A stretch of DNA of 64,000 bases from Oligoflexia bacterium. GTDB taxonomy: Bacteria > Bdellovibrionota > Bdellovibrionia > Bdellovibrionales > Bdellovibrionaceae. Of the stretch, positions 28,060-43,580 are shown one piece after another. The translations under genes and the position numbers were made by a program. The notes beneath the pieces are model-generated. The model did not search any database. It saw only the letters and a program-made list of their open reading frames with translations, and had not been told where the DNA came from. Every line of letters begins with the position of its first letter. Position 1 is the stretch's first letter. The stretch spans positions 146,177 to 210,176 of the forward strand of contig BOLD01000004.1 in the NCBI GenBank assembly GCA_016861345.1. Reading direction: 5' to 3'.

Positions 28060-29751
28060 TCATTGAATACCCACTCCAAAACCCATAAAACGGACGACGG
28101 AGCGATGGTAGAGTGGTTGAATACACCAGTCTTGAAAACTGGAAGGCTCGCAAGGGCCTCGCGAGTTCGAATCTCGCTCGCTCCGCCAATTCTGATTTTC
28201 CTTCCAACCGGACAAACGAGCAAACGGACTTTTCAATTGATATTGAAGAGTTAGCCCATCAAGAGTTGGGTTCGAACATACCTTTTTCAAGTATTCGAGC
28301 CGCTCTTCTCGGTTCATTGAAATGTAGAGTTCTTTCGCGTTGATAGCCAGTTCGAACACTTTTTTGACCGATACCATCGCCTCGTCACTGATCGACAGCG
28401 TGAGGCGTTCGATTTCTGATTCATAGTGTTTGCGATCCTCACGAATGCGGTCAATCTGGCGTCGGTATCCAATTTCATCTAACAAGCCACGTTTGAAATC
28501 GTCATACGCGATGTCTTCTTTGCCTTCGAGTCCGCGAAGCTCAACGCGAAAGCCTTCCATTTGTTTTTTGATCGCAGCCTTTTGTTTGTCGTGTGTTTCG
28601 TTGAGAGCACTAGTGATGTCCTGGGCGAACTCCTCAGAAATGGAAAGCGCCGCGACTGCTGGCTCAAGCTGCGCCCATAGCTTATCTTCTGAGACATAGA
28701 CTTTTTTATCATGAATCTTGCGGGAATTTGAACAACGATAGAGATGATACACTTTCACTTCGCCGGTCGATTTCAAGGTCTTTTCCTTTCTCTCATAAGT
28801 GATTTGTCTGCGACATTCTGGATGGTCGCAGACTAACCAACCACGAAATACGTCATCGCCGTTCATTATCGTTTTGCGCTGGATGGACACGTTGCCATCG
28901 TTGATTGCTTTGACGGCCTTGAGGACTTTCGCAGGGATAATTAACTCGTGCTTGCCTTTGTAGTTTTTCGGATCGCCCGTCAGCTTGAATGAGCCCCAGT
29001 AAAACGAGTTCTTGAGTCGTTTCTCAACGGAAGTGCGATTGTAGGTTTTGATTTGGGCGGTGGGTACGAGGTTGTCTTCAAGGTTTTTCTGTCTAATTAC
29101 ATCGTATGAATGGCCCTGAGCGCGTAGCTCAAACTCACGCTGAACGAGTCGCACGTTTGCTGGGTTTGGGTCCACGATAACAGTAGCTGTTCCTTTGATG
29201 GCGTACCCCGACCTATCGACTTCCTTGTGATGGACGTAACCAAGTGGCGTGTGACGATAGGGGAACCAACCTTGTTCTGCCTTGGTTCGGAATGCGTTTC
29301 TTACTCTGGTTCCATTTTCACGGCTGTAGTTTTCATTGATGACACCGGTAATACCGCGCAAAAGCAGATCAGCATCCGACGAGTGTTTCGAGTATGCCTT
29401 CCCGTCCGCAACGTGGTGAACAATGATTTTATCCTGTCGAATTAAGTCGGTGTTCGCTGATAGGTCCTTTGGATTTCGGGCCTCACGACTCGCGTTGTAA
29501 AATAAAATGTGTTTTGCACCCAGCTTCTTTGCCTGTGCCATTAGCGCGTTATACTTGCTTCGCTTCTCAGAGTCATAAGCGGTTTCGATAATCTCCGCGG
29601 GCGTAATCACAAGCTCAAGGCCATGATCTTCCGCATACCTCGTGATCGCCGCGATTTGCGTTTCAGCCGAAGTATTGTCCTTCTGTCCCGCAGAACTTCT
29701 GCGAACAATCGCTACACATTTTTTGATGGGGTCTTCTTTCCACTTTTCCAT
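28060..29751 (-). CDS. Large serine recombinase (integrase)
   Basis: The N-terminal resolvase catalytic domain (VAIVRRSSAGQKD, catalytic Ser) is followed by a recombinase domain, a zinc ribbon (CDHPECRRQ...YRCSN) and a coiled-coil region. AGGAG lies 7 nt before the ATG at 29751. The last ~43 codons overlap tRNA-Ser and its upstream spacer in antisense. Confidence 0.9.
   Translation of the reverse strand: MEKWKEDPIKKCVAIVRRSSAGQKDNTSAETQIAAITRYAEDHGLELVITPAEIIETAYDSEKRSKYNALMAQAKKLGAKHILFYNASREARNPKDLSANTDLIRQDKIIVHHVADGKAYSKHSSDADLLLRGITGVINENYSRENGTRVRNAFRTKAEQGWFPYRHTPLGYVHHKEVDRSGYAIKGTATVIVDPNPANVRLVQREFELRAQGHSYDVIRQKNLEDNLVPTAQIKTYNRTSVEKRLKNSFYWGSFKLTGDPKNYKGKHELIIPAKVLKAVKAINDGNVSIQRKTIMNGDDVFRGWLVCDHPECRRQITYERKEKTLKSTGEVKVYHLYRCSNSRKIHDKKVYVSEDKLWAQLEPAVAALSISEEFAQDITSALNETHDKQKAAIKKQMEGFRVELRGLEGKEDIAYDDFKRGLLDEIGYRRQIDRIREDRKHYESEIERLTLSISDEAMVSVKKVFELAINAKELYISMNREERLEYLKKVCSNPTLDGLTLQYQLKSPFARLSGWKENQNWRSERDSNSRGPCEPSSFQDWCIQPLYHRSVVRFMGFGVGIQ
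28099..28188 (+). tRNA. tRNA-Ser (anticodon UGA), CCA encoded
   Basis: The cloverleaf was read by hand. The acceptor stem is GGAGCGA/TCGCTCC. The anticodon stem is CCAGT/ACTGG with loop CTTGAAA. The long variable arm is GGCTC-GCAA-GGGCC. The T arm is GCGAG-TTCGAAT-CTCGC, followed by discriminator G and CCA. Confidence 0.93.
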
Positions 29752-29779
29752 TTCAATTCTCCTATTTTAGCAAAAATCC

Positions 29780-30301
29780 TTACTCTTTTCCATTTGTTCC
29801 GAGTTCGAACATGTCTACTTCTCCCTCTGGTTCTAATATCTCTTTCTCTGTTTGAGAGTTCGCGACGACGCTTTTTTCACTTTGCCGAAGCAGTAGCCGG
29901 AACAAATCGACTATTTCGTCAAACTCTCCGCGTGAAAGGCTCAGCACATCGCCGTTGGGGAGTTTATACGTTTTGAATATGGGGGGAGTTTCAGAATCGC
30001 CAGTGGGTTTAGTAATCACTTGTGGCGTGTTCCCTGAGCGAAATGCTGCCGAGTTTTGCGATGGTTCCACAAGTGACGACGGAACAGAATACAAAAAAGG
30101 ATCACCTTTTTTTCCAGAGCCACGGAATGCAATAGAGCCTTGCGCTCGAAGCATACGGATAACGTCGATCTTGTCTTTCCTGCGGCCACTAACAGCCGAA
30201 AGTATCGCTGATTCAGATTGAGGCTTGTTGTTCTGGGAAAGAAACTCGACAATTTTCTGTGCGATCTGATCTTGTCGAGAAGTTTCAGGACTTGAGTTCA
30301 T
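29780..30301 (-). CDS. Winged-helix-like protein upstream of the integrase (possible regulator / directionality factor)
   Basis: The segment KIVEFLSQ...ILSAVSGRRKDKIDVIRMLRAQGSIAFRGSGKKGDPFLYSV is paralogous to ORF 40984-41268. The start is uncertain (ATG 30301 or TTG 30331). Confidence 0.55.
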   Translation of the reverse strand: MNSSPETSRQDQIAQKIVEFLSQNNKPQSESAILSAVSGRRKDKIDVIRMLRAQGSIAFRGSGKKGDPFLYSVPSSLVEPSQNSAAFRSGNTPQVITKPTGDSETPPIFKTYKLPNGDVLSLSRGEFDEIVDLFRLLLRQSEKSVVANSQTEKEILEPEGEVDMFELGTNGKE

Positions 30302-30644
30302 CCTGACCGTCCATTCGAGAAACCAGCGCAATGCGCAGGCGGTTACTCAGTTGGAGTCGGGATGCAAATTTGTGGGGCTATCCTTACTCTGAATTCATGT
30401 CGATCCGTCCACAGCGGGGCTTCCAGGCAGTGGTGAAGCCAAGCACGGTCGATCACTTGCGTCTATTGTATCACAAGCCCAACGCAATCCAAAGTGAATC
30501 ATATTTGACTAATTTAGTTCGGGCTAAAGCCATTCCTGTCTTTGTGATATAGATGTACGGGTGATACGAAATCCATTCAGCGCATCGTCTGGCCGGACTT
30601 TAAGCGCATTCAATGATTCCGCACCCTCGAACATTTGATTGAAG

Positions 30645-30699
30645 CCTCCGCTCGTAGATGGGCGAGTGGCCCATCTACACTTGTCCCTATGAGCGGAGG
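30645..30699 (+). promoter_or_regulatory. Nested inverted repeat that would sequester the SD of ORF 30704
   Basis: The outer arms CCTCCGCTC (30645-30653) and GAGCGGAGG (30691-99) are perfectly complementary. So are the inner arms GTAGATGGGC (30654-63) and GCCCATCTAC (30669-78). The 3' outer arm contains the GGAGG SD 5 nt before the ATG at 30704. Confidence 0.6.
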
Positions 30700-30703
30700 T
30701 TTT

Positions 30704-31843
30704 ATGAAAGACATTAAAAATTATGAGCGTTGGATGACTGCGGCCTGCGAGTATTTAACGCCGACGGAATTCAAAGTGTGGGTCGCTTGGTATGGCGACG
30801 CTCCTGGTTTCAGCGCGGGGGCGACCAGAATTTGTGAAAGGGTCCCAGGCTTACGAACGAACCATGCTCGTGCTGCAATTCGCAATATTGCCAAAAAGAA
30901 ATTCATCAAGGATTCAGGGGCAAAGCGAAAAAATGAGCACGGCAGCCCCACGACGGTTTATGTGCTTGGAAGTTTGGACGAGGTAATCGCCCATAATAAG
31001 TCAGTACCCATTGAAAGCGGACAGCTTTCGGAAGATAGCGGACGAACCTCGATCACGAAGAGGCCGGATACTCCAATCAAAGAGGCCGATGATAAAGAGG
31101 ATAGCGGACGAGTGGCCGTCCTCGTACAGAGAAACAAAGAAGAAACAGGAGAAGAACAGTTAAGGCAAAACACTTCCCCCTCTTTTTCTGAATCTCCTCA
31201 AGCGCCGGAGGGGCTTAGCCAAAAGAAAGAAAAAATCTTCCATCCATTAGGTGATGAAGATGCCCACCTTCGACCCTTTGGCGATATTGGTCAAATGCAG
31301 CATGAATTAGATCAATCCTTTTTAAGGGACACAAACCATATTCGCCTTGGTTCTTTGAAAAAGGACGAACTTGAAAAGGTCGTTGCCGATTTGGAATCGA
31401 CCTTGAGCATGAGGCACTTATTTAATGAATGGGGCGATTCTTGTGGTGAACTTTATCCGAGTGAACAAGTCAAAAATTTAGTAATTCAAAAAATTTTGGA
31501 GAACAGATTTAGAGATAAGAGCGGAGTCTTTTCGATAGGCTCAGAGCTTTACTTCAAAGTAGAAGCTACGTTGAAATCTGCACTCTGGCAGCGGCAGTAT
31601 GTTTCCCACGCTCCTAAGCGTGCATGTTCGCCAGAAGTTTGGAAACGATTGACCCGACTCAGACCAATTTTAGATGCAAAGAATCAAATAGAGGTGGCTA
31701 AGACCGATGAATTTATTTCCGAGATTCTTACTGACGAAGAAAAGCAGTTGGCTGAAATAGAGCTAACAGATTCAGATACACAGTTACTTCGAGAATATGG
31801 CCATCTTATTGATCGGCCTTTTTTAGCGTCCCAAAACTCCTGA
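30704..31843 (+). CDS. Hypothetical protein with an N-terminal HTH/wHTH-like region, acidic linker and unknown C-terminal domain
   Basis: The start was chosen at the ATG with GGAGG upstream. The N-terminus YLTPTEFKVWVAWYG...RAAIRNIAKKKFI looks like the DNA-binding module of replication or regulatory proteins. This is an inference. Confidence 0.6.
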   Translation: MKDIKNYERWMTAACEYLTPTEFKVWVAWYGDAPGFSAGATRICERVPGLRTNHARAAIRNIAKKKFIKDSGAKRKNEHGSPTTVYVLGSLDEVIAHNKSVPIESGQLSEDSGRTSITKRPDTPIKEADDKEDSGRVAVLVQRNKEETGEEQLRQNTSPSFSESPQAPEGLSQKKEKIFHPLGDEDAHLRPFGDIGQMQHELDQSFLRDTNHIRLGSLKKDELEKVVADLESTLSMRHLFNEWGDSCGELYPSEQVKNLVIQKILENRFRDKSGVFSIGSELYFKVEATLKSALWQRQYVSHAPKRACSPEVWKRLTRLRPILDAKNQIEVAKTDEFISEILTDEEKQLAEIELTDSDTQLLREYGHLIDRPFLASQNS

Positions 31844-31989
31844 CAAAGTTTATGCTCTTTCAGGCATACGAATCCATAAGCTCTTTTCAAATCATCTTAT
31901 AGAGCCTCCAAGCGCGTTTCAATTTGATCCACTTGGCCGTGAATATCCGACTCATTTTATCCGATAAGTCCAAGTATCTGGAGGTTCGC

Positions 31990-32409
31990 ATGGCAACAGT
32001 AAATGGAAACGCACTGCTTGGCGGGGTTGGAATCGAAGTACCACAAGGATCACATGTCGAAATTATAGAACGAGTGGACGATGGCCTGGCATCTTTCAGA
32101 GTCACATGGCGTACCCCGAATGGACCCATCACGGGCACCATTACGACAAATCTCCTAGATTTTACAGCCGCCGAAATTGCCGAGCATGACCTTCCGACCG
32201 ATGCTAACGGTTTGCCGCTCTATCGAAACTTGCGGGTGAAATATACCGGCCAGTCAAATGTAGCGGTTACTAACGGTGACTTTCTGTTCGTTCAGGACCT
32301 TTGGTACAATGACGACGCGATGGAATGCCGATGCGTCCATCATGGCAATTCTCGTCCAAACACCGACGGTCGTGTTGTCATCCGTCGTGACTTACTGGAG
32401 CGAGCGTAA
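31990..32409 (+). CDS. Small hypothetical protein (two beta-rich, SH3-like halves)
   Basis: GGAGG lies 5 nt before the ATG at 31990. The product is 139 aa. It sits 23 nt upstream of the HEPN-motif gene. Confidence 0.55.
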   Translation: MATVNGNALLGGVGIEVPQGSHVEIIERVDDGLASFRVTWRTPNGPITGTITTNLLDFTAAEIAEHDLPTDANGLPLYRNLRVKYTGQSNVAVTNGDFLFVQDLWYNDDAMECRCVHHGNSRPNTDGRVVIRRDLLERA

Positions 32410-32432
32410 GTAAAATGTGCTCCTGAGGTATC

Positions 32433-33914
32433 ATGGGACACGAGGGAAACGGACTAGAACATTTAGAAGCAGATTGGCTGTATTATAGCCATGACATATC
32501 AAATTTGTCGGCGATTCCTGGTTCAGACATTATTCCCGCACAACTGACTGTGAAGCGAAACGCTAATTTGACCGTGTCCTTGGAAATATCGGGCACCGAC
32601 AAATACCTGTTTCAAAAAGAACAAGCAAAACAAGTGCGAGTTGGGACCGTAAGCGCTAGTGGCTCCATGTCCGGCGAGGTCAAACACGCAGGCTATAAAG
32701 TTGAACTGATCGGCGTAACAGCGGGACGGAAGACTTCCAATTTTTCCGGTGAGTACACCATCCATGCTTCAGCAAGTTCCGTTCGCATTACTCGAAACGA
32801 ATTGGAGCCAAAAAGTGCAATTATATACGCGGTCGGTTGTCCGAAACTTCTTTTTCATCGGGGGACCTGTCGTGACGTGGAGCCTGGTAAAGTCACACTC
32901 AGCCGAAGGCACGTTGGGGACGCCGATCTGGGGTCAGTTGGCGAAATGTCATTTGATTCTTATGGAGAAAGTCGAAGTTCGGCGACAGACTACCTTTTGA
33001 TTAAGAACAAATATGGAACCGTGATCTTCTCTAAAGGCGAACCGTCGTCAGAAACGGAAGAATATTCCCCATGCTATTTACAGTTCATTGATGGAAATGG
33101 AGTCATTGATCGTGATTTTCGCCGAAGATACTTGGAAGCAGTAAGTTTTGCGCTTGGTAAAAGACTGATTGAAATCGGACACTCGACTTTTTCTGAGGAT
33201 CATCAGCCGATTTGCCAAGAATCTCGCACTCCATACTCACTAAATATCAAAAAGGAAGCCGCGATTTATCCACTTCCACCGGCAGAGAATGTTCTGCATG
33301 GCCAATTCCCCAGCGAAGAAGTCTTTTCTCAAATTGTTGATGGCTTCTTAGACAATTATGAATCCTTGGATCTATCGAATGTCATTTGGCCGTTGTGGAT
33401 CGCTCGGCTCATGCCGCTTGGTACGGAGCTTGTTTCATACTCATCATCTTTGGAATCTCTCGTGACGATGTGGTTTAAGAATAAAGAGCCGCAAAAAAAT
33501 GAATATGTTGATAGTGATTTGTTCAAGAGTATCGTCGCGTCCACACATGAGCAGGTATCAAAAGCGTCGATGACGGACGAACTCAAGGCAACTTTGAGTC
33601 GAAAGATTGAATTGGCAAATCACCTCAGTATTGGGGATAAGAAAAAGCGATTTTTTGAATCATTAGGGTTAGGATTCGGAAAAATCGAGAAGAAAACCAT
33701 CGCTTCGAGGAACAAATACGCGCATGGCGGCTCAGTCAAGGACGCAGACACCCGTGATCTGGTCATCCTCGCCCGTTGCTACGAAGCTCTAATAAATCGG
33801 GCGTTACTTGCCGCAATCGGTTCAAAAGGTAATTACGTGGATTACTCTTCGTATGACTTTCCTGAAAGAAACATCTCGGTCGAGATGGCTGGCACCAACT
33901 TTGATAAAAATTGA
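32433..33914 (+). CDS. HEPN-motif protein (candidate abortive-infection/defence RNase; possibly ApeA-like)
   Basis: The C-terminal helical region contains SRNKYAHGG (R426-x4-H431, nt 33708-33725), which fits the RNxxxH HEPN consensus. About 60 further helical residues follow. The N-terminal ~400 aa are beta-rich and unassigned. Confidence 0.6.
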   Translation: MGHEGNGLEHLEADWLYYSHDISNLSAIPGSDIIPAQLTVKRNANLTVSLEISGTDKYLFQKEQAKQVRVGTVSASGSMSGEVKHAGYKVELIGVTAGRKTSNFSGEYTIHASASSVRITRNELEPKSAIIYAVGCPKLLFHRGTCRDVEPGKVTLSRRHVGDADLGSVGEMSFDSYGESRSSATDYLLIKNKYGTVIFSKGEPSSETEEYSPCYLQFIDGNGVIDRDFRRRYLEAVSFALGKRLIEIGHSTFSEDHQPICQESRTPYSLNIKKEAAIYPLPPAENVLHGQFPSEEVFSQIVDGFLDNYESLDLSNVIWPLWIARLMPLGTELVSYSSSLESLVTMWFKNKEPQKNEYVDSDLFKSIVASTHEQVSKASMTDELKATLSRKIELANHLSIGDKKKRFFESLGLGFGKIEKKTIASRNKYAHGGSVKDADTRDLVILARCYEALINRALLAAIGSKGNYVDYSSYDFPERNISVEMAGTNFDKN

Positions 33915-33918
33915 ATCC

Positions 33919-34434
33919 TCACACTGCTTTGTCTTGGCTTACGTCAATCATCTCGCTGCGAATCTCGCCAACTAACTCCGCCATGTGAATCAGAGTGGCG
34001 GCTATAAATTCCGGTTGGAATAGGTTAACGTCGCCAACGATTTCGAGTAGGAGCTTCACAGTGTTTCGGCTGGTAGGTTTGGGAACAATTCTGATCGGGG
34101 CGCGGTCATTGACGTGCAGATAGAATGCGATTCGGTAAAGTAATGCGCTCGCGTCCGTCTCGGTTGTTTCGCAAACCTCCGCCGCCACCCTAAAGATATT
34201 TGAGTACGTGCTATTGCTCGTCGAAGGGATGCAAATATCAATCGCGTGACTATCCCAAAGAAACGCATACCTGATACCTGTCGGATGAATGTGCTTGGCG
34301 GCTTCAAGGTCAAGCTGGAGATCGCCAAGTGTGTTATCAAGGACGGCTTCAAACGCGCATGGTTTACGTTTGTCCATATATATCAGCCTGTCATTCTTAA
34401 TATTGAGTGAATGTGTACTGACCATTGATGACAC
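33919..34434 (-). CDS. Hypothetical cytoplasmic protein, last gene of the minus-strand operon
   Basis: A 171-aa ORF with no signal peptide. The start is uncertain (34434 overlaps the upstream gene by 38 nt; an alternative Met is at 34377). Confidence 0.45.
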   Translation of the reverse strand: MSSMVSTHSLNIKNDRLIYMDKRKPCAFEAVLDNTLGDLQLDLEAAKHIHPTGIRYAFLWDSHAIDICIPSTSNSTYSNIFRVAAEVCETTETDASALLYRIAFYLHVNDRAPIRIVPKPTSRNTVKLLLEIVGDVNLFQPEFIAATLIHMAELVGEIRSEMIDVSQDKAV

Positions 34435-35470
34435 AAATTTCGCCGTAAACTTTGCCGGTTCCGCCTCCGACCAGGTTTATGTACTTCGATCCAGAATAAC
34501 ACACTGGGGGAAGTTGTGGCGCACTGGCTGCGTCCGGCATCGTAGGGTCAAGGCCCATGAGGTATCGCCGCCAGTTGTAATCGAAGAATTTTGAAGCATC
34601 GACGACGTGGTTAACAAAAAACTTCCAATCTCCCCCTTGTTGCAGCTCTTTTCCGTTTTTGTCATAGGACTGCCAGAGTTGCTCAAACTCAGACCTTGTA
34701 ATTTGACCGAAATTAAATTGCGTTCTTATCAGTTTCGCTTCTGTGGTAAGCGCCGCCATGACTGCTACATCGAGAACCGGATCAAAATAAATGTTCCCAT
34801 TTCGACGCTCAGTGCAAAATTCAAAAGGCGTAGTTCCTGTGGGACAGAATGAAAATCCCCAATCCGCCACGTCGTCATAGCGGGTTAGAAACCAGTTGCC
34901 GTTTCCATCGTTCGTGTAGCTGAAAATCTCGTTGGGCACGAAATCGGCGGAGCTTGCCGGAAAATTCGAGAAGTCTAAGAGAAGTTGTTTCCCGTAGTCT
35001 TGTGGATTGACGGGTTCCGTTTCGTGATCTTCACGGGCATAAAAGCATGAGACATCTCTTTGATAGACGACGTTGCTGTCTTTGTCTTCCCCTAGAGTAA
35101 TCCTGCGAAATTGTCCCGTGCTCGCATCAAAATCGAGATAATAACGATCATCACGATAAGAATAGTAGTTGCTCGATGCCTTAAGTGCCATGCTTGGAAA
35201 ATTTGGCTGTGGAACGCAGTTGACGTTATGCTTGCGGCGCTTTTCCGTTGAGGCTTCATAGTTGGTCAGCGCAATTTGATCCGTCAAGCACGCCTTGGAG
35301 CTTTCTAGCCAATACTGATTGAACTTCTTGAGATCGCCATAGGCATCGCGCTGATAATAAATGCCTTTACAGTCCGCCGCTGTTTGCGTAGCGCTTGATT
35401 CATTTTTTGATTCATCGTTGCACGAGCAAAGAAGAGTTGTGGCGATCAATAAAACGTACCGCCTGTCCAT
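34397..35470 (-). CDS. Putative lipoprotein (unknown function)
   Basis: MDRRYVLLIATTLLCSC lipobox. GAGG lies 5 nt upstream of the ATG at 35470. Multiple Cys residues and an aromatic-rich mature part are present. Confidence 0.65.
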   Translation of the reverse strand: MDRRYVLLIATTLLCSCNDESKNESSATQTAADCKGIYYQRDAYGDLKKFNQYWLESSKACLTDQIALTNYEASTEKRRKHNVNCVPQPNFPSMALKASSNYYSYRDDRYYLDFDASTGQFRRITLGEDKDSNVVYQRDVSCFYAREDHETEPVNPQDYGKQLLLDFSNFPASSADFVPNEIFSYTNDGNGNWFLTRYDDVADWGFSFCPTGTTPFEFCTERRNGNIYFDPVLDVAVMAALTTEAKLIRTQFNFGQITRSEFEQLWQSYDKNGKELQQGGDWKFFVNHVVDASKFFDYNWRRYLMGLDPTMPDAASAPQLPPVCYSGSKYINLVGGGTGKVYGEICVINGQYTFTQY

Positions 35471-35477
35471 ACACACC

Positions 35478-36188
35478 TCATTCCTTCCAAAGAGCTTCGA
35501 CCTCTTTCTTTTTCTTGCGTTTCTTGTCTAGCTCTTCTTTTTCTTTCTTTTGAGAAGCAAGTTGACGCTCTTTTTCTTTCAGCTCTTCAACTCGCTTTTT
35601 TTCTTCATGGGCCTTGTTTTCGGCGATGACTTCTTTTCGTTTTTGGTTCCACCACGTCTCGTATTTTGACGACCCTAGAAGACCTTTTTTTGAATAGATA
35701 ATCGCCGGAGCCATGAAGTCAGTGCGACTTCCATCGTAAAAGACCCAGCCGACTTCCATATTAGGAACCCCGTTAAATGATCCGGCCTTTTTGTCAACAT
35801 AGCCTTGCAGGTTAAGTCCGGTGACTTCCTCAAAACCGCCATCTGCACACTTTTTGCCGTTGGCGATCTTCATACGCCCCTCGGTTCCGACGCCGGTTGT
35901 GCGCAACGTGTAGCTGTTCAGATAAAAAGCTCCACAACCGGATCGTTCACGCACTGTGCCTTCGTCCAAGACAATATCGCCAAGACAGGCGACCGATTTC
36001 GGCCAAAGTGACTCTTGCTTGCGGTAGTCGCCGGTCGGCACCTGAGCCACTGCAAAGTCACAACGTCCGTCTTTTTCGACAACCGCCTTGAGTTTTCCCA
36101 GGTGCGAGTCCAAGTCGTCAGCGTTCGCCAACCCTCCACATAAAATAACAAAAATAAAAATGACGTTATTTCGCAAGATAGTCGTCAT
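35478..36188 (-). CDS. Secreted protein with a Lys/Glu-rich coiled-coil tail
   Basis: Signal peptide NNVIFIFVILCGGLANA. The C-terminus is ...EEKKRVEELKEKERQLASQKKEKEELDKKRKKKKEVE. Confidence 0.65.
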   Translation of the reverse strand: MTTILRNNVIFIFVILCGGLANADDLDSHLGKLKAVVEKDGRCDFAVAQVPTGDYRKQESLWPKSVACLGDIVLDEGTVRERSGCGAFYLNSYTLRTTGVGTEGRMKIANGKKCADGGFEEVTGLNLQGYVDKKAGSFNGVPNMEVGWVFYDGSRTDFMAPAIIYSKKGLLGSSKYETWWNQKRKEVIAENKAHEEKKRVEELKEKERQLASQKKEKEELDKKRKKKKEVEALWKE

Positions 36189-37158
36189 ATTTTTCTGCCT
36201 TTGCTAACTTCAAAACTTCGTTCATATCCACGGTGATCTTAAACAGAACCATGCCCTGATCGTTCTTTGGTTGAGGTTCAATTTTGGCGACATAAAGCAT
36301 GAGATAGCCCCAAACTTTCGCGCCTTCATTTTTATCAATGTGCGTGAGCCAGCGAGGTTTTTTTGATTGAATACTTTCGTCGTCGTTAGCTTCGCGTTGA
36401 GCTAGGTCCTCAAGTTCACCCGCTGAGTCCGGCGCGTTAGGTGTGGGCCGGATGTCGTAAGGTTCAATTTTTTTCCCGATAGCATCGTGCATTTTTGCGG
36501 CTAAGGCCGGAGACACATTCGGTCCCATTGTCTGAAAGAGGTTCAGGAGTTTTTCATTTGGCATCATGAGAAAAGTCGGAGCTTGAGCCGATTGATTGTT
36601 ACCAGTGAATCGAGCCGCTGAGATGCGATTAGTAGAAGTGTCAAGATGAACTGGGTTTCCTGATCGGGCCTGAATGCGGTCTAAGGTCGGAGCGTAAACA
36701 AACGCCGAATAAATTTTCCCAGAGTCTTCTTTGATTTCCGAAAAGAACCAGTCCGCAGGGGCGCGAAATTGTTTGTATGATGAACTTGCGTCGATATGAG
36801 CTTCGAGTAGGTTTGCATTATACTCTGGAACTTTCCATTTGACGGTTTTTTCTAACCGGCCTAACTCGCTGACCTCATCTGGCCTTGTCATGGAAAAGAG
36901 AACACCGAGACCGTTACTTAAACCGTTCAAGACAGAAAATTTTCTGATTTTTTCAGCTTCAACCTTCGGCTTGCCCTTTACGTCCGGCATACGAATGGAA
37001 ATCACATACTCGATAGGGCCGCTATTCCACTGAGTCGGAAATTGCTTGAACCTAACTTGTGGCTCAACGGGTTTCACTGGCTCCGGTATCGGCGGCTCCG
37101 AGGCGCAGCCCGACAATATGAAAGATGCGATTGCGAAAATACGAGTTAGGTTTTTCAT
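36166..37158 (-). CDS. Putative lipoprotein (unknown function)
   Basis: MKNLTRIFAIASFILSGC lipobox. Its start overlaps the stop of the upstream HTH gene (ATGA). Confidence 0.7.
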   Translation of the reverse strand: MKNLTRIFAIASFILSGCASEPPIPEPVKPVEPQVRFKQFPTQWNSGPIEYVISIRMPDVKGKPKVEAEKIRKFSVLNGLSNGLGVLFSMTRPDEVSELGRLEKTVKWKVPEYNANLLEAHIDASSSYKQFRAPADWFFSEIKEDSGKIYSAFVYAPTLDRIQARSGNPVHLDTSTNRISAARFTGNNQSAQAPTFLMMPNEKLLNLFQTMGPNVSPALAAKMHDAIGKKIEPYDIRPTPNAPDSAGELEDLAQREANDDESIQSKKPRWLTHIDKNEGAKVWGYLMLYVAKIEPQPKNDQGMVLFKITVDMNEVLKLAKAEKYDDYLAK

Positions 37159-37649
37159 TTGCTGCTTCCTTTCGGGTCGTCAGTGGTTTCGTCAGCGTCG
37201 GCAATGTCCTCTATCGTTAACTTCACCCACTTTGAAAAAAGTTTTTTTGTGGGGAGTTTGTCGAACTTGGTCGATTGCTGATACCCGAAGAGATAATCAA
37301 GACTCACGCCATAGTGCTTGGCGATTGCGAGCAAATGACCTGGGTCGATTTGTTTTTTGTCGGGCTTCAGATAGCCGGTAAAGGTTGATAAAGGAATCTG
37401 GCAGGCCTTCGCGGCGGATCTCGCAGATTCTCCGTTCTTTTCCATAAGTGATTTTAAGATCGAATGTAGTTTCATACCCGCTATGCTTCGGGTTTCATTA
37501 GAGTTTTCAGAAGGCGGGTTCACGAAGCCGCTCACTATGTCCGACATCTCGTCACGGACCAAACGATTGAGTTCCTCAGAAGCCTTTTCTGTGGCCGTGT
37601 TCGTCGCATTAGCATTTGGTCCCGATACAGGACGATTACGAGAAGTCAT
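37155..37649 (-). CDS. XRE-family HTH regulator with a disordered N-terminal tail
   Basis: LKSLMEKNGESARSAAKACQIPLSTFTGYLKPDKK...LLAIAKHYGVSLDYLFG is a Cro/C1-type HTH. Confidence 0.75.
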   Translation of the reverse strand: MTSRNRPVSGPNANATNTATEKASEELNRLVRDEMSDIVSGFVNPPSENSNETRSIAGMKLHSILKSLMEKNGESARSAAKACQIPLSTFTGYLKPDKKQIDPGHLLAIAKHYGVSLDYLFGYQQSTKFDKLPTKKLFSKWVKLTIEDIADADETTDDPKGSSK

Positions 37650-37813
37650 ACATTCATCTCCAACCGCGACCTAAACAAGAACCTACAGTCTGTCTCAAAC
37701 TGGACTTGCCCGTCGTGGTACAAAGTTCGGTCGCTATGTCTAGCTTTACGGTCGGAACAGTGGCGCTTTAACTGGTAAAGTGACATTTCCGCTGGGTTTG
37801 GTAGACTTTGAGG

Positions 37814-38617
37814 ATGCGACTGTTCCGTTTCAATCCAACAATCAGAGAGGCTAACAAGTATCTTTCCAAGACGGTCGATGACCTTTTGAAAAAACACGGC
37901 GGCGTCTCGAATGAAGACTTTGAACGCGATCTTGTCGCCGCGACCGGCATCGGATGGAAGCAGGTCAAGAATTACAAAAATCATCCAAAGCCAGGCGAAC
38001 GACTCAAAGATAACAGCGTAGTCATAAAGTATATTCGTGAATGTCGAGCGAAGGACACCACTCGGAAAGTGCGCTCTTATGCCTTGGCCATTGGAGGTAT
38101 CGCGGTCGTCTGCATTTTTCTGTATCGTTACGTGACCGCGCCAAGAACTATTGAATCGTTTGCGGTTCACGAAGTCGCTGAGCCGTTGCCGCCAAGCCAC
38201 GATAAAATTGAAACAAGATTGTTCCTTGAGGTTGGCGGTTGGATTTTGCGTCTTGGTCCAATCAAACATTCAAAAGTTCCTCTCGAAAAATTCGTTTGCT
38301 CAAAACTCTCCTCGGTCGGCCAGACAAATTGCTCATTTTCAGAAAGAAGGCCGAACGGCCTTTTTCAAGTCACGTTGCTCATGGACGGCGACTTCGTCAG
38401 GAAATACTCGGTCATGACATTGGACTCTGTTGAGATCGAATCTCTGCGAAAACAGCTTGCTAACCGAGTTGACAGGGAAATCGCATCTGTAGATCCAAAT
38501 CCCTTGTCACAGAAGCAATTCAAGGTTGGCGACGAATCACTTGAAATTCTATCGAACCCCGCAGGGCCAGGTTCACGGCCCATGCTGACCGTTTCAGTGT
38601 CCTTCGCGTCACTTTGA
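37814..38617 (+). CDS. Possible HTH / single-pass membrane protein (coding strand uncertain)
   Basis: The composition is balanced. An HTH-like segment (FERDLVAATGIGWKQVKNYKN) is followed by a basic stretch and then a TM helix (YALAIGGIAVVCIFLY). It is fully overlapped by two minus-strand ORFs that have coupling signals, so this call is tentative. Confidence 0.45.
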   Translation: MRLFRFNPTIREANKYLSKTVDDLLKKHGGVSNEDFERDLVAATGIGWKQVKNYKNHPKPGERLKDNSVVIKYIRECRAKDTTRKVRSYALAIGGIAVVCIFLYRYVTAPRTIESFAVHEVAEPLPPSHDKIETRLFLEVGGWILRLGPIKHSKVPLEKFVCSKLSSVGQTNCSFSERRPNGLFQVTLLMDGDFVRKYSVMTLDSVEIESLRKQLANRVDREIASVDPNPLSQKQFKVGDESLEILSNPAGPGSRPMLTVSVSFASL

Positions 38618-38720
38618 TTTGTCCCTTTTCCATCTGCTTTTGATGACACTGAAAGCGAATGCGCGGCCTCGGTGTTTTCAGGCACTTGCGAGGCTGATTT
38701 TTTCGACCGTTTGGAAGACA

Positions 38721-39347
38721 TTAGCGCCTCCCTTTCAAAATCCTCTCAACGCTCGTTTTCCCAATTTCGAGTGTCCGGCTGATTTCGCGGATACTCTTTC
38801 CGTTGGCCCTGAGGGTCTTCACTTGTTCAACGGTCTCATCTGGCAGGGGCTTACGACCGCATGACCAACCAGTGTCAGCGGCGGTCATCTTTTTTACAGC
38901 GAGCGCGGTTTTGATTCGTTCGCTGATTAGACTTTTTTCGAGTTCGGCGATAGCGCCCAGAATTTGAGTCACGGCACGGCCAACCGGAGTCCCCAAATCA
39001 ATCGACTCACGCAAGGAAATTAAAGTGACCCCGTATCCGTCTAATTCGTGCAGTAGATTGAGCAAGAAGCGGGTATCTCTCGCCAAACGATCCAGAGCAA
39101 AAATAATGACGACCTTGAACTTGCCCATACGAGCATCCTTGACGAGTTGGTCAAGGGCCTTCCGGCGATCCGCTGAGCCAGTGATCCGGTCAACGTACTC
39201 GCCGACGAGCTGAAATTCACGGTTGGTCGCTACGCCACGGATCGGAACCAGTTGATGCTCTGGCTCTTGTTTCAGAAGTGTTGAAACACGGGCATAGGCG
39301 ACTGCCTTCACCTGGTTCACGCTGCCTCCTTGATAAGAAGGCGGCAT
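38721..39347 (-). CDS. Small serine recombinase (resolvase/invertase family)
   Basis: AVAYARVSTLLKQE (catalytic Ser), VIIFALDRLARD, and the C-terminal HTH GKSIREISRTLEIGKTSVERIL. Confidence 0.9.
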   Translation of the reverse strand: MPPSYQGGSVNQVKAVAYARVSTLLKQEPEHQLVPIRGVATNREFQLVGEYVDRITGSADRRKALDQLVKDARMGKFKVVIIFALDRLARDTRFLLNLLHELDGYGVTLISLRESIDLGTPVGRAVTQILGAIAELEKSLISERIKTALAVKKMTAADTGWSCGRKPLPDETVEQVKTLRANGKSIREISRTLEIGKTSVERILKGRR

Positions 39348-39676
39348 GTGATCGTGGGTTTGGTCTGGTTCAGCACCTTTTCAACGTATTCTGCTGAACT
39401 AAGTTCCGCGCATACAGACTTCCACGAAACATTAGTGCGACAGACGCTTTTTAGCACAACGGAGTGAATGGAGTCGACATCTGCGCCATCTTGGATGCGA
39501 GCCATGATTGAGTTTTCAAGTTCAACCAGTTCGGCTTCAGCAAGCTCCAAGCGCTTTTTCTGAGCGTCATGGCTTCGACGCAAGCGCAGGACCTTTTCGA
39601 CCTCTTGGTTTGTTACGGTTGCCCCTTTAAGGGCTAAGCTTCCTTGGGTTCTCATAGGACCTCCGTTGGTTGACAT
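39317..39676 (-). CDS. Hypothetical protein upstream of and overlapping the resolvase
   Basis: A 119-aa ORF with a coiled-coil-like centre (KKRLELAEAELVELENSIMARI). It overlaps the resolvase start by 31 nt. Confidence 0.5.
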   Translation of the reverse strand: MSTNGGPMRTQGSLALKGATVTNQEVEKVLRLRRSHDAQKKRLELAEAELVELENSIMARIQDGADVDSIHSVVLKSVCRTNVSWKSVCAELSSAEYVEKVLNQTKPTITCRLLIKEAA

Positions 39677-39700
39677 TACAAATACAGCTTAACGCAATGC

Positions 39701-39738
39701 GTATTAATAATCAATACTAGGGTATTGAAAATCAATAT
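39701..39738. promoter_or_regulatory. Operator-like array of four alternating GTATTGA-type half-sites in a divergent intergenic region
   Basis: The half-sites are GTATTA (39701), CAATAC (39712), GTATTG (39722) and CAATAT (39733), at ~10-11-bp spacing. The central TCAATAC-TAGG-GTATTGA (39711-39728) has perfect 7-bp arms. Confidence 0.6.
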
Positions 39739-39759
39739 AACTGCCGATAACGTATAGGA

Positions 39760-39966
39760 ATGAGTCAGCCCAAGTTTCGACATCCAAAAGAGATGAGCAG
39801 TCGCAAGGATCGTGTGGCGCTTTCAACCCGCGTCCTAGATAAAACCAAGAGGCTTTTAGAGAAGGCGGCGGAAAAGCATAAAATTTCTCTCTCCGAACTC
39901 TGTTCAAACGTGTTGGACGAGTATGCGGAATGGCTCGAAAAAGAAGATGAGCAAAAGAAGAGGTAG
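39760..39966 (+). CDS. Ribbon-helix-helix (CopG/MetJ-like) protein
   Basis: 68 aa. RVALSTRVLDKTKRLLEKAAEKHKISLSELCSNVLDEY fits the strand-helix-helix layout. The tail is acidic. Confidence 0.65.
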   Translation: MSQPKFRHPKEMSSRKDRVALSTRVLDKTKRLLEKAAEKHKISLSELCSNVLDEYAEWLEKEDEQKKR

Positions 39967-39975
39967 GAAGGCGCG

Positions 39976-40815
39976 ATGTTCAACTTATTGATGTTCAACG
40001 TAGATTGGCCTTCGGGCAGAGTCAAAATCCCGATAGCACGGATGTTTGAGTACACTGAGTCCGAAATAGCCAATTCATTTCGGAACGGAAGCGACCTCTT
40101 GCTTGATCGTCTAATTTCTTTGCCTTGTCTTTTCTGTGTTGAGGGTGTGGCGGACGAAGTAGCTTATGTCGGCCAGATCAATCGAGCACGTGTCGTCGGT
40201 AAAGAAGTATCTCTAGAAGTCAGCTTTGACACTGACATACCGCCTCTCCATAACCGTATGATTCACGCAAATCGCACTGGATTAGACATGCCAGAAGAAT
40301 TCGAGTTTTCGCGGAATCATTGGGCCGTGAAGGACGTGGACCTTTACCGCTTCTTACTCCGAAATGTGCGTCCCCGCCGCCAACGCCCTGTCGTGTTCCA
40401 AATCTCCGAACACGAGAATATCGAACCGACTCTCGTATCAGCAATGATGCCGTTTGATGCGAGTTTCAACGAAGTTTATACGGCTATTCGTGAAGCTACT
40501 GAAAATGTAGGGCTGAAATGTAGAAGAGCCGATGATATTTGGGAAAACCCAGCGATCATCCAAGATGTCGTTTCTCTTATCGACCGCTCCCGTGTCATCG
40601 TTTGCGACTGCACTGGTCGCAATCCGAACGTGTTTTATGAGGCTGGCATTGCGCATACCCTTGGACGGGAAGTAATCCTAATTACTCAGAGTGAGCACGA
40701 CATCCCGTTTGATTTACGTCATCTTCGCTATGTCCGCTATCTCAACAATGGCGAAGGACGACGTGTGCTTGTTGCCGCCCTCCAAAGTAGGATGCAAACG
40801 ATCCTCGGACACTGA
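39976..40815 (+). CDS. Two-domain protein: unknown N-terminal domain plus a nucleoside-2-deoxyribosyltransferase/TIR-like Rossmannoid C-terminal domain
   Basis: AGGAAGG SD, with the start 9 nt after the RHH stop. The C-terminal half is VSAMMPFDASFNEVYTAIREA...RADDI...IIQDVVSLIDRSRVIVCDCTGRNPNVFYEAGIAHTLGREVILI. It shows the ...D-x-T/S-G...N-x-x-x-E-x-G-x-A-x-x-x-G-K/R-x-V pattern with Glu222 (nt 40639-40641). Confidence 0.6.
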   Translation: MFNLLMFNVDWPSGRVKIPIARMFEYTESEIANSFRNGSDLLLDRLISLPCLFCVEGVADEVAYVGQINRARVVGKEVSLEVSFDTDIPPLHNRMIHANRTGLDMPEEFEFSRNHWAVKDVDLYRFLLRNVRPRRQRPVVFQISEHENIEPTLVSAMMPFDASFNEVYTAIREATENVGLKCRRADDIWENPAIIQDVVSLIDRSRVIVCDCTGRNPNVFYEAGIAHTLGREVILITQSEHDIPFDLRHLRYVRYLNNGEGRRVLVAALQSRMQTILGH

Positions 40816-40983
40816 ATCCGGCTAAATAGCCGCCGCTCTGACACTTTAGGCTACCGGAGTTGGGAACCGGCAAATTCGGAACTGGCTGGGAACAACCTTA
40901 CACCCATACATGCACGCGATCAGCGCCACTCAAAAAACTGAATGAACATCGGGAACGACAATCTTCTAGTTAACGGAGGTTGT

Positions 40984-41268
40984 ATGAATCTGGTTAGTTT
41001 CTTTTCTGAGCACGGTGATAATGATCTTTTCTTTCTGGCCCGAAATGAGCGAAAGCCTCGATTGCGGGACATTGTTATTGAGGCCATGCGTTTGCTCGCC
41101 CGTGGGCCGCTGACAAAGCTGGAGCTTCAAAAGCTCGTCAAAATTCGCCGCAAGACATTCATTCGTTTGCTGGCCGGTTTGGTCCAAGCCGGTGTTGTAA
41201 TTCGCACGGGAACCGGCAAGCGCCGCGATCCGTTTCGCTATATGTTGGCTGACCACTATCGCGGCTAA
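40984..41268 (+). CDS. Small winged-helix protein (paralogue of ORF 29780-30301)
   Basis: GGAGG lies 4 nt before the ATG at 40984. LTKLELQKLVKIRRKTFIRLLAGLVQAGVVIRTGTGKRRDPFRYML shares the RRK...G-x-GK-x-x-DPF-x-Y signature with the other ORF. Confidence 0.6.
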   Translation: MNLVSFFSEHGDNDLFFLARNERKPRLRDIVIEAMRLLARGPLTKLELQKLVKIRRKTFIRLLAGLVQAGVVIRTGTGKRRDPFRYMLADHYRG

Positions 41269-41401
41269 TCCACTAACTGAAAACGGCTATCGGGGAAATA
41301 GCCCATATGGGTAGTAAACCCCCGTTGAGTTTTTCCGGTGAAGTCACTATGACCGACTCCCCAAAAATTTTTCTGGAAAAATTCTGGGAAAATAGAGGGT
41401 C

Positions 41402-41462
41402 GGGAACATGAATCGTAGGTTGGAATCAGAAAATGCTCCGATTCCAGCAACTGGGGCATTTT
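41402..41462 (+). repeat. Left copy of an imperfect direct repeat flanking the ImmA cassette
   Basis: It shares the exact 12-mer GGGAACATGAAT (41402-41413) with 43354-43365. Co-linear blocks follow: TGGAA, AGAAAAT, CTCCG, CCAGC, GCATTTT. Confidence 0.7.
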
Positions 41463-42555
41463 ACATCAAAGATAATTGCTCAGGGCTATTGGAGTCAGGA
41501 CTCAATATCAGAAGATCTTTAAGAGATTCAAAATCCTGTAGGTTAAGTCCTAAGTTTTCCGAACATTCTTTTCCAGACAATTCGTTCAAGCAGTTTTCTA
41601 TGATCTTAGGGGGATCGAAAGAAGGCTCTTCGGGCTCATTGCCTCTGTAAGCGTTAAGCAAAATGTTTGCGCGTCGATATGTCGGCTCAGACATGCAGTT
41701 AAGATCGAAAGCCCTTCGAATAAGTGCTGCTAAAGAAACTCCCCAACGTCGCTTCAGTCCGATGTAAGCATCCATGTTAAAGCGCCGAGGACATTCAGCC
41801 AGAAAAGCTTCTCTTGGTAACAGGAATGCGCTCGCAAATCTGTTTGCCTGTCTTTCTAATTCAAAGTCTCCCGCCGTAACATCATGGTGCATGAATAGGT
41901 GGCCAAGCTCGTGAGAGGCATCGAACTTAATTCTGGATGTTGAAGTCTTCGGAACCAGAAAAATTAAAGGTCTGCTTCCGTTCCAGACGGAAAAAGCGTC
42001 TACGCCCTTACAGTCCTCTGGAATGAATGAAACAAGGATGCCTTTGCTCTCCAAAACCTTCATCAGGTTTGGAATCGGACCGAGTCCCATATTCCACGAG
42101 CTTCTCACTCTGCCAGCTAGGCGCTCAATATCTTCATCGCTTCGCACCGTGGAAGGTTGAATAGAGCTAACTTGCTCCGCAGGTAAATCAAACTCTTCTT
42201 CAATCTGATTTATAAGCTCACATTGTATGGTGCCGAGAGCGAGAATTTTACGACGTTCTCTTTGGCTCGTACTTCTTAGACTTCTGAAATGACAAGCCTC
42301 TAAACGAATCACAGATGTCTGCAAAGGCTTACTGAAAAACGCCGGTTTAATACCCAAAGCAAGACTCATGTGCGCAATTGTCTTCGCATCAGGTCTGATG
42401 GTTTTATCTTCGAACTGAGTGATCGAACTGGGGGTCTTCCCAATTTTCTCCGCCAACTCAGCTTTAGTCATACCTCTCATCTCTCTCGCCAATGTTAAGC
42501 GAGTAGATACAAAGTTCTGCGAGATTAGAGATAAATCGAAATGGTTCATACTCAT
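41461..42555 (-). CDS. XRE-HTH / ImmA-IrrE (COG2856) zinc-metallopeptidase fusion protein
   Basis: The N-terminal HTH is LAREMRGMTKAELAEKIGKTPSSITQFEDKTIRP. The central HELGHLFMH is an HExxH motif in the context typical of ImmA/IrrE peptidases. Confidence 0.85.
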   Translation of the reverse strand: MSMNHFDLSLISQNFVSTRLTLAREMRGMTKAELAEKIGKTPSSITQFEDKTIRPDAKTIAHMSLALGIKPAFFSKPLQTSVIRLEACHFRSLRSTSQRERRKILALGTIQCELINQIEEEFDLPAEQVSSIQPSTVRSDEDIERLAGRVRSSWNMGLGPIPNLMKVLESKGILVSFIPEDCKGVDAFSVWNGSRPLIFLVPKTSTSRIKFDASHELGHLFMHHDVTAGDFELERQANRFASAFLLPREAFLAECPRRFNMDAYIGLKRRWGVSLAALIRRAFDLNCMSEPTYRRANILLNAYRGNEPEEPSFDPPKIIENCLNELSGKECSENLGLNLQDFESLKDLLILSPDSNSPEQLSLM

Positions 42556-43232
42556 AGAGTTTCAATCTTAGACTTGTCTTTCTTACGAGTCACCACAAAG
42601 TCAGGAACTTCAACTTCAGGATGCAGTTGTGCTGCTGTATCAGTGGCAAATCCGTCGGCCATAGTTTTCATATAAATCTGATGTGTGCGTTTCCATGATG
42701 AAATTCTACCGTTACTCACTTCGCCAGGAGCACACAGATACACGGCTTCAAGACCCGTTTCAGGATTTCCCAAATGAGCAATAACCCAATTCTTGATAAA
42801 TTCTTGCTCTTGATCTTCTGAATCGAAAATGGACTTACCAGTTTCAACATCTATCAGAAACGGTGTGTTGTTCTCTTCGGCCAACTTGGGAGCAGTGTTG
42901 GAATTGTGAGGGAAGCAACGTGAAATATCTTGAGACGCAAACTTGCCCACCCTGTAAGACGCGAATACGCGATTGTTGATGTGCATTCGAAATGTGAGAC
43001 CGTCGTAAATTTTTACGTCTTGATCCTCAACGTGCACGTTGTCTGCAAAAGACTCTTTATAGTTTTTCTTGGTGTAGAAATGGACGCCGTAACCGAAAAT
43101 GTTGGAGTTATCTCCGTCCTCTTCGTCGTATTTGCTTTGCGCTGTTAAATACGACTTTTGAAGTGCGGCAATAATAGCCGCTTGCTGATGTTCAGTGATA
43201 AGATCGTCCGGGACCTGATTGTTAGCAGACAC
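42552..43232 (-). CDS. Hypothetical protein translationally coupled to the HTH-ImmA gene
   Basis: A GTG start lies 4-5 nt after AGGAGG. The stop overlaps the downstream start (ATGA). The product is 226 aa with no motif I can name. Confidence 0.65.
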   Translation of the reverse strand: MSANNQVPDDLITEHQQAAIIAALQKSYLTAQSKYDEEDGDNSNIFGYGVHFYTKKNYKESFADNVHVEDQDVKIYDGLTFRMHINNRVFASYRVGKFASQDISRCFPHNSNTAPKLAEENNTPFLIDVETGKSIFDSEDQEQEFIKNWVIAHLGNPETGLEAVYLCAPGEVSNGRISSWKRTHQIYMKTMADGFATDTAAQLHPEVEVPDFVVTRKKDKSKIETL

Positions 43233-43353
43233 TTTCCCTCCTGCCGAAGTTATTATTTCATCGTTAATAATTAAGTGAAATTGTCATTCAATCAAGAATT
43301 TTTTAGTGAAATGATCGAAATAATTATTGATATTAAGCGTCATGGTGATGTTT

Positions 43354-43420
43354 GGGAACATGAATGACGAGCTGGAACTAGAAAATCTCCGGCAAAAGAC
43401 ACCAGCGGAACAAGCATTTT
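43354..43420 (+). repeat. Right copy of the imperfect direct repeat flanking the ImmA cassette
   Basis: See 41402-41462. It has the same 12-mer and the same order of shared blocks, with one 1-nt and one ~6-nt indel. Confidence 0.7.
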
Positions 43421-43580
43421 CAAAAAAAGGGGAACAAGAATAATTTTGAACAGATCCAGCAGCTTGACGTTCACGAAGCCCAAGAAATCGCTTCTGTTCT
43501 GAATTCGGCGACTTCTCTCCGCCACTTTGGGCTAAAGACCTTTCGTCGACTTTGCCTGAATTTTAAGCCACAATCTTTAA

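Follow-up and report, generated by a model that had tools for sequence, protein, structure and literature searches.

A stand-alone protein with an ApeA-type HEPN domain, carried by a mobile island of an Oligoflexia bacterium, belongs to a large unnamed family with a probable role in defence

ApeA is said to have been described as an anti-phage system by Gao et al. in 2020. It is a single protein of ~580-600 amino acids (aa) that is predominantly alpha-helical and forms doughnut-shaped oligomers, combines a catenin-like N-terminal domain with a PafA-like Mid domain, and cuts tRNA anticodon loops once its pocket binds deoxydinucleotides (doi 10.64898/2026.01.26.701840). ApeA also cuts the genomes of RNA phages, its catalytic motif reads RNKITH and the substitution R521A abolishes defence by Ec1ApeA (doi 10.64898/2026.03.20.713152). 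A second described architecture fuses ApeA-NTD1, a ~300-aa, mostly beta-strand and poorly conserved domain, to an Apea HEPN domain (Anantharaman et al. 2013, PMC3710099). Here a gene for a 493-aa HEPN protein (the HEPN gene), found in a stretch of 64,000 nucleotides (nt) from an Oligoflexia bacterium (contig BOLD01000004.1, positions 146,177 to 210,176; hereafter the window), was compared with these systems. At a probability of roughly 0.6, we regard its product as a HEPN ribonuclease that is complete in one polypeptide, belongs to a large unnamed family present in bacteria and archaea, travels as mobile cargo and would serve in defence.

The HEPN gene and its product have the position, strand, ATG start and length given in a preliminary description of the window (Table 1). 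HEPN_Apea (PF18739, gathering cut-off 24.4 bits) was the sole Pfam match of the 493-aa protein, at a marginal 25.3 bits (E-value (E) = 2.2e-5), and the match aligned aa 336-463 with profile positions 3-131 of 136. The majority-consensus sequence of the family scored 37.5 bits against the same profile (E = 4e-9) and its runner-up Pfam matches were also HEPN families, HEPN_RiboL-PSP (E = 0.003) and Csx1_HEPN, while individual matches to HEPN_Apea at E <= 0.01 were recorded for 22 of 72 members. As judged from its sequence, the C-terminal third of the protein is an ApeA-type HEPN domain.

The preliminary description had drawn attention to the string SRNKYAHGG (aa 425-433) about 60 aa before the C-terminus as a HEPN motif. 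Its codons are where they were reported (R426 at 33708-33710, H431 at 33723-33725), H431 lies 62 aa from the C-terminus, and R426-N-K-Y-A-H431 has the R-x4-6-H spacing, with a polar residue after the arginine, that characterizes the HEPN superfamily. Among 127 diverse homologues, which are the members of a 129-sequence alignment minus two close relatives, E419 was kept in 125, R426 in 125, asparagine or histidine at position 427 in 126 and H431 in 126. R426 and H431 were nearly invariant in the alignments of 129 and of 72 members, with H431 invariant in the latter. Loss of these two residues from homologues had been named as an observation that would speak against a HEPN nuclease; both are kept, and with the region also scoring above the HEPN_Apea gathering threshold the motif is not a chance occurrence.

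The AlphaFold2 (AF2) model computed from the 129-sequence alignment had a predicted local distance difference test score (pLDDT) of 92.2 and a predicted template modelling score of 0.92 and was used throughout; the single-sequence model (pLDDT 30.8) was discarded. Strands extended to about aa 265-270 and helices started at about aa 295, those of the HEPN region spanning aa 332-350, 361-377, 417-430 and 437-461 with R426 near the end of the third. The beta-rich N-terminal part, earlier put at ~400 aa, is corrected by these boundaries and by the HEPN match to about aa 1-270. Conserved residues of the intervening linker and helical region (aa 226-335) included R230, F239, G242, G249, P283, W322 and P328, and the C-terminal extension had near-invariant columns at Y468, D470 and P477 and predicted strands at aa 467-469 and 478-480. 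Profiles, conservation and the AF2 model together support an ApeA-type HEPN protein with a beta-rich N-terminal part that falls in no assigned family. Promoter and terminator scans performed no better than chance, and some below it, and were not used.

Table 1. Coordinates of the HEPN gene, its regions and the neighbouring features in the window
Feature	Position	Strand	Remarks
HEPN gene	32433..33914	+	ATG start, 493 aa; stand-alone, the whole functional unit; member of an unnamed family of ~490 aa
aa 1-225	32433..33107	+	Beta-rich, most variable N-terminal region; putative sensor or regulatory domain
aa 226-335	33108..33437	+	Conserved alpha/beta linker plus helices ahead of the HEPN core
aa 336-463	33438..33821	+	ApeA-type HEPN domain; PF18739 match and AF2 helices
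Catalytic motif E419-x6-R426-N427-x3-H431 (R-x4-H)	33687..33725	+	Conservation in homologues and alignment to Ec1ApeA
aa 464-493	33822..33914	+	Conserved C-terminal beta-hairpin extension, then stop codon
p139, 139-aa open reading frame (ORF)	31990..32409	+	ATG; island backbone gene; no domain matches; homologues in L005, L006 and L007
Spacer, 23 nt	32410..32432		Junction of recombination between p139 backbone and HEPN cassette
p171, 171-aa ORF	33919..34434	-	Convergent with HEPN gene; backbone or variable-slot gene
Integrative element, ~15 kb	28189..43580		Pfam annotation and synteny with L005/L006; right end approximate
tRNA-Ser(TGA)	28099..28188	+	ARAGORN; left edge, likely integration site
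Large serine recombinase, island integrase	28060..29751	-	Pfam Resolvase and Recombinase; 75% identical to the L006 copy
279-aa ORF	39976..40815	+	PADLOC PDLC00733 'Effector / TIR', E = 9.4e-9, aa 186-259; no Pfam match
Helix-turn-helix (HTH) and Peptidase_M78 (ImmA/IrrE-type) fusion	41461..42555	-	Right end of island
226-aa protein	42552..43232	-	After the HTH and Peptidase_M78 gene

The N-terminal region was the most divergent portion of the protein, identity to the window protein across homologues being 15-17% in aa 1-225 against 23-35% downstream. The family may be a divergent branch of an architecture, ApeA_NTD1 plus HEPN_Apea, that a computational survey recorded in 2013 and whose published description agrees with the AF2 layout. 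We consider this rather unlikely, as ApeA_NTD1 (PF18862) was matched by none of 72 members at E <= 0.01 and, even at E <= 10, by none of 10 diverse members, nor by the first 300 aa on their own or a 291-aa N-terminal consensus; no other Pfam family matched the latter two sequences at E <= 10 either. Comparison of sub-regions by hhalign was negative for an internal duplication, and sequence and profile searches of the Protein Data Bank (PDB) with the HEPN protein gave no match. The beta-rich part produced weak Foldseek matches to Hcp/tail-tube, Dit and PCNA-like structures, with template modelling scores to the target of at most 0.44, which serve as a lead only.

The novelty of the protein depends mainly on whether its N-terminal domain and the 2013 ApeA-NTD1 are the same. 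Compared with the known systems, the new feature is the combination of an ApeA-type HEPN domain with a beta-rich N-terminal domain of no assigned family. A bolder proposal is tentative and somewhat doubtful in our estimation: the window protein would be the first representative of a separate, widely distributed family of HEPN immune nucleases that act as single proteins, and its N-terminal domain, possibly with a fold like that of Hcp or phage tail tubes, would be a new kind of infection sensor unrelated to the helical sensor of ApeA. If true, two or more sensor modules of unrelated structure would have been joined to the ApeA-type HEPN effector.

Exhaustive phmmer searches returned 694 cluster representatives of the family at E <= 1e-3 and 494 at E <= 1e-10 (clusters defined at 50% identity, ~700 in all). 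The members were mostly 480-505 aa long, many aligned over their full length, and they were scattered patchily over many bacterial phyla and archaea. Only two relatives, 94% (locus L004) and 87% (locus L001) identical to the window protein, were recovered by a word-indexed search, and the same two came back with the family alignment. Scanning 185,579 species genomes with a back-translated motif gave 71 loci, 70 of them with a verified family member. The largest cluster of neighbouring genes spanned five of the 71 loci, whose family members, in Burkholderia, Paraburkholderia and Acetobacter, were nearly identical. These copies (L071, L073, L033, L081 and L036, from Burkholderia arboris, B. dolosa, two Paraburkholderia species and Acetobacter sacchari) had near-identical N-termini, were 476-477 aa long and had a small upstream ORF in common. 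Their presence in the five genomes points to recent transfer between Beta- and Alphaproteobacteria and, with the patchy distribution across phyla, to horizontal transfer of the family. A 467-aa 'minimal' distant homologue of ApeA from a Burkholderia species, Bp1ApeA (WP_076938731.1), was found by phmmer only and could not be transformed (doi 10.64898/2026.03.20.713152). The failure to transform it is presumably due to toxicity, and Bp1ApeA may belong to the family described here.

Some copies were apparent pseudogenes, about six of 70 being split, frameshifted or truncated away from contig ends (L019, L058, L064, L065, L069 and L082). Pseudogenization is often seen in costly or toxic accessory genes.

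Copies in L001 (10001-11482) and L014 (3977-5449, 33% identical) occupied the same slot of related integrative and conjugative elements (ICEs), directly before a block of small ORFs, TrbC and TraG. The two ICE copies had different genes upstream; the one in L001 encodes a sigma-54 response regulator, the one in L014 a sigma-70 region-4 protein, and the slot looks like a cargo hotspot. At locus L015 (111-2653) a 32% identical family member overlapped by 4 nt an upstream gene for a 357-aa SIR2 protein with a match to the Dsr1 N-terminus (PADLOC, E = 8.6e-36), and the pair adjoined an HTH_17 gene, a D12-methyltransferase and a NotI restriction-modification system. The overlapping genes may represent a two-gene variant of SIR2 and HEPN that is confined to this lineage.

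An AbiGi gene neighboured the family member at one further locus. When a census of Pfam families was taken over the 148 nearest neighbours, integrases, SIR2_2, AAA_15/21, PIN, HSDR_N and AbiEii recurred among housekeeping genes, no family occurring in more than three of the 148 and none being dominant. The MNT/nucleotidyltransferase antitoxin family was absent from the 25 most frequent neighbour families listed. The census is suggestive of a defence context, and relatives do occur in mobile and defence settings as anticipated, namely in ICEs, on plasmids and beside defence genes.

These settings also bear on a selfish function, in which the HEPN ribonuclease would act for the carrier ICE or island as a toxin for addiction, exclusion or competition between elements. 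Members that are only 33% identical share a cargo position before TrbC/TraG in two ICEs, other carriers are islands (the window and L004) and plasmids, and the L004 copy stands beside an S-AdoMet-lyase-like gene of a type associated with anti-restriction. We hold this explanation to be improbable, as no conserved cognate antitoxin or immunity gene was found and many copies are chromosomal and located beside housekeeping genes. True anti-phage systems, too, usually reside in the cargo hotspots of mobile elements, so that context is unable to separate a selfish from an immune function.

The preliminary description had instead proposed a two-gene unit, with p139 acting as antitoxin or sensor together with the HEPN effector. 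The arrangement itself was described accurately, p139 having its own GGAGG (31980-31984; its longest ORF form starts from TTG at 31924) and lying 23 nt before the HEPN gene on the same strand. Each gene has a plausible ribosome-binding site, and with this spacing the two may be co-transcribed here. A small upstream ORF was also present in L013 (95 aa) and L016 (111 aa), but such small ORFs elsewhere showed no relationship either to p139 or among themselves, and the comparative data largely refute the unit and leave it very improbable. The upstream genes of the three closest copies were all unrelated, these being p139 in the window, an S-AdoMet-lyase-like gene in L004 and the sigma-54 response regulator in L001, where the HEPN gene follows after 16 nt and directly precedes the TrbC/TraG genes of the ICE. 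Neither the 94% nor the 87% identical homologue was accompanied by p139. Homologues of p139 that are 50-80% identical were followed by a gene of 172 aa, by none on that strand or by a gene of 262 aa, and never by a HEPN gene.

Homology at the DNA level ran exactly from 32433 to 33915 in the comparison with L001 and began at 32433 in that with L004, while the homology of p139 to L005/L006 stopped at 32408/32409, which places a breakpoint inside the spacer. As these breaks coincide with ORF boundaries, the HEPN gene is taken as a separate cassette and p139 not as its partner. By tblastn, L006 proved to be the same island family lacking the HEPN gene (integrase 75%, p139 75% and p359 60% identical), and L004 had the HEPN gene, p171 and p359 in common with the window but not p139. 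The co-occurrence of p139 and the HEPN gene that had been suggested as a check was not seen, since no homologue of p139 was present at the 71 family loci; p171 and p402 likewise had none there, and no conserved neighbour emerged. Flanking genes of family members in nine contexts had no mutual similarity (all E > 0.3). To judge from these comparisons, the HEPN gene is an autonomous single-gene cassette and p139 is island backbone that it does not require. For annotation, this makes the feature a one-gene cassette whose upstream ORF should not be labelled as its partner.

Beyond its position, p139 (100% identical to BroJett040_10100) yielded few clues. The two SH3-like halves once ascribed to it found no support, as there was no Pfam match, no similarity between the halves and no PDB profile match. 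A role as a conserved adaptor before swappable effectors was considered and rejected, since the genes downstream of its homologues lacked recognizable domains and L006 had none on that strand. In L007 (3355-7268) a 55% identical homologue of p139 had a gene for an 872-aa AAA_13/AAA_21 ATPase 27 nt upstream and overlapped a 262-aa gene on its other side, and p139-type proteins may belong to conflict-type clusters in other genomes.

A function with no link to genetic conflict, be it that of a HEPN protein in housekeeping or RNA processing or that of a nucleotide-binding protein without catalysis, would suit the loci found among ordinary metabolic genes but is scarcely credible for a family with a patchy, horizontally transferred distribution, cassette behaviour in mobile elements, about six of 70 copies split or frameshifted and strictly conserved catalytic residues. 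The contexts sampled were the reverse of the conserved synteny that a core gene would have within a clade.

The HEPN assignment, the conservation of the catalytic residues, the autonomy of the gene and its mobile or accessory context were established in this analysis. By analogy with known systems and from its context, the protein probably serves in defence against phages or mobile elements. A composite active site would arise by dimerization of two HEPN domains, as in ApeA and other proteins with a single HEPN domain. Until an infection cue is sensed, the N-terminal region would hold the enzyme off, whereupon the active enzyme would cut RNA, either tRNA anticodon loops or the RNA of the invader, and the propagation of the phage or foreign element would be stopped. 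Dimerization, trigger, RNA target and defence phenotype are all proposed here on the strength of analogy.

Several results weigh against a family of HEPN defence nucleases. Whole-chain Foldseek searches of the PDB and BFVD gave nothing significant and no HEPN structure among the top matches, and because of this the HEPN fold is argued from sequence-profile matches, the conserved motif and the secondary structure of the predicted model. The whole protein had zero matches in NCBIfam, PHROGs and PADLOC. When the family was aligned by hhalign with Ec1ApeA and Ec5ApeA, about 62 columns at the active site were matched at a probability of 2% (E = 0.024). No family member was found in phage genomes, and the plasmid carriers were of only three distinct types (Cupriavidus, Leptospira and Komagataeibacter). 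A locus in the archaeon Methanoregula had an ordinary-looking context, the neighbour census was made without a background control and included many housekeeping genes, and element maintenance or competition would fit the same data as anti-phage defence.

Should the protein prove to be a single-polypeptide defence nuclease, the ~700 clusters would constitute an unannotated single-gene immune system that was missed by PADLOC-DB v2.0.0 (2023), the only library of defence systems searched here. With a compact gene, a clean catalytic motif and close variants in three genetic contexts, the family is easy to test.

Within the window the HEPN gene lies in an island that contains the large serine recombinase, a second resolvase, HTH regulators, the HTH and ImmA/IrrE protease fusion and the 279-aa TIR-model protein. 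As judged by the comparisons with related islands, the HEPN gene is swappable cargo in a variable slot of a serine-recombinase element next to tRNA-Ser. The preliminary description had placed it in an island next to other conflict genes; the mobile island was borne out, while the neighbours were so only weakly, as the one other defence-type match, to the 279-aa gene, is 6 kb away. A weak homologue of this TIR-model protein (29% over 119 aa, E = 2e-4) was located ~1.9 kb from a HEPN-family member in L041 (Rhizobiaceae), and the 279-aa protein may be a second defence-type cargo gene. A copy of p171 that is 83% identical was present downstream of the HEPN gene in L004 and absent in L001, and p171 had no domain matches; on this comparison p171 is not a general partner of the HEPN gene.

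Homology to the L006 island began at 28160, within the 3' part of the tRNA-Ser gene. The right end was inferred from the first housekeeping gene, a fumarase at 43581, and no tRNA-derived direct repeat (attR) was found at that end of the island, so that the boundary is approximate. The serine recombinase ORF ran through the tRNA-Ser gene in antisense, its last ~40 codons being tRNA antisense, and integration at or into the 3' end of the tRNA may have created or extended the end of this ORF. A 40-nt imperfect direct repeat (41395-41434 and 43347-43386, 73% identical) bracketed the Peptidase_M78 fusion and the 226-aa gene. Arrangements of this HTH/ImmA-IrrE type are typical of derepression modules of mobile elements or prophages.

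In L004, a gene for a 177-aa protein of the S-AdoMet-lyase family (524-1057; PF23780, E = 4.5e-10) ended 12 nt before the 94% identical HEPN homologue. The S-AdoMet-lyase type is known from phage anti-restriction, and by its predicted gene content this island family carries an anti-defence gene beside a defence-like gene.

Full-length Ec1ApeA and Ec5ApeA were taken from E. coli genomes by way of the 5' gene fragments of Table S5 (doi 10.64898/2026.03.20.713152). The Ec1ApeA gene adjoined a MobQ relaxase gene. Ec5ApeA (L089, 2501-4252), which is experimentally active and labelled 'hypothetical protein' in RefSeq, was located in a P2-like prophage between baseplate and tail genes. This site of P2-like prophages is a known defence hotspot.

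Beyond ApeA, the window protein has R-x4-6-H HEPN ribonuclease chemistry, presumed dimerization and roles in conflict in common with HepT/MntA, DARNA/PD-T7-3 and PrrC/RloC, and matched none of the models for HepT, DARNA/PD-T7-3 or PrrC/RloC in PADLOC. HepT requires the MNT antitoxin, whereas the family described here has no conserved adjacent partner, and PrrC and RloC are fused to ABC ATPases, unlike the window protein. Identity with DARNA/PD-T7-3 was rejected because the domain order is opposite, an N-terminal HEPN domain being followed there by an all-helical, Pds5-like C-terminal sensor of single-stranded DNA while the HEPN domain of the window protein is C-terminal. The ApeA-NTD1 plus HEPN(Apea) proteins (PF18862 and PF18739), compared by Pfam model and description only, have the same layout by description and AF2 secondary structure but differ in that PF18862 is silent on the members, the isolated N-terminal region and the consensus.

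Resemblance to ApeA itself is closer in plan than in sequence. Neither Ec1ApeA nor Ec5ApeA was detected by the hidden Markov model of the family (below 0 bits), and together with the marginal profile match this indicates that the window protein is not a member of the characterized ApeA family, though it has the same layout. Full-length homology is lacking, and PADLOC and NCBIfam gave zero matches, including to any ApeA model held there. ApeA is helical and ~600 aa long, whereas the window protein has 493 aa and a predicted N-terminal region of ~270 aa that is beta-rich. The preliminary description had left the choice between an ApeA-type architecture and something new; the single-gene layout of a putative sensor followed by HEPN holds, as in ApeA, and the protein is not a canonical ApeA. 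Like ApeA, it is encoded by one gene with no conserved partner, has a single C-terminal HEPN_Apea-type domain with an R-N-K-x-x-H motif behind a large non-catalytic N-terminal region, and is carried on mobile elements, and hhalign sets its RNKYAH opposite the experimentally essential RNKITH of Ec1ApeA. If the defence role holds, ApeA offers a natural comparison, one of the same catalytic module with a completely different putative sensor, which bears on how HEPN effectors are silenced and triggered.

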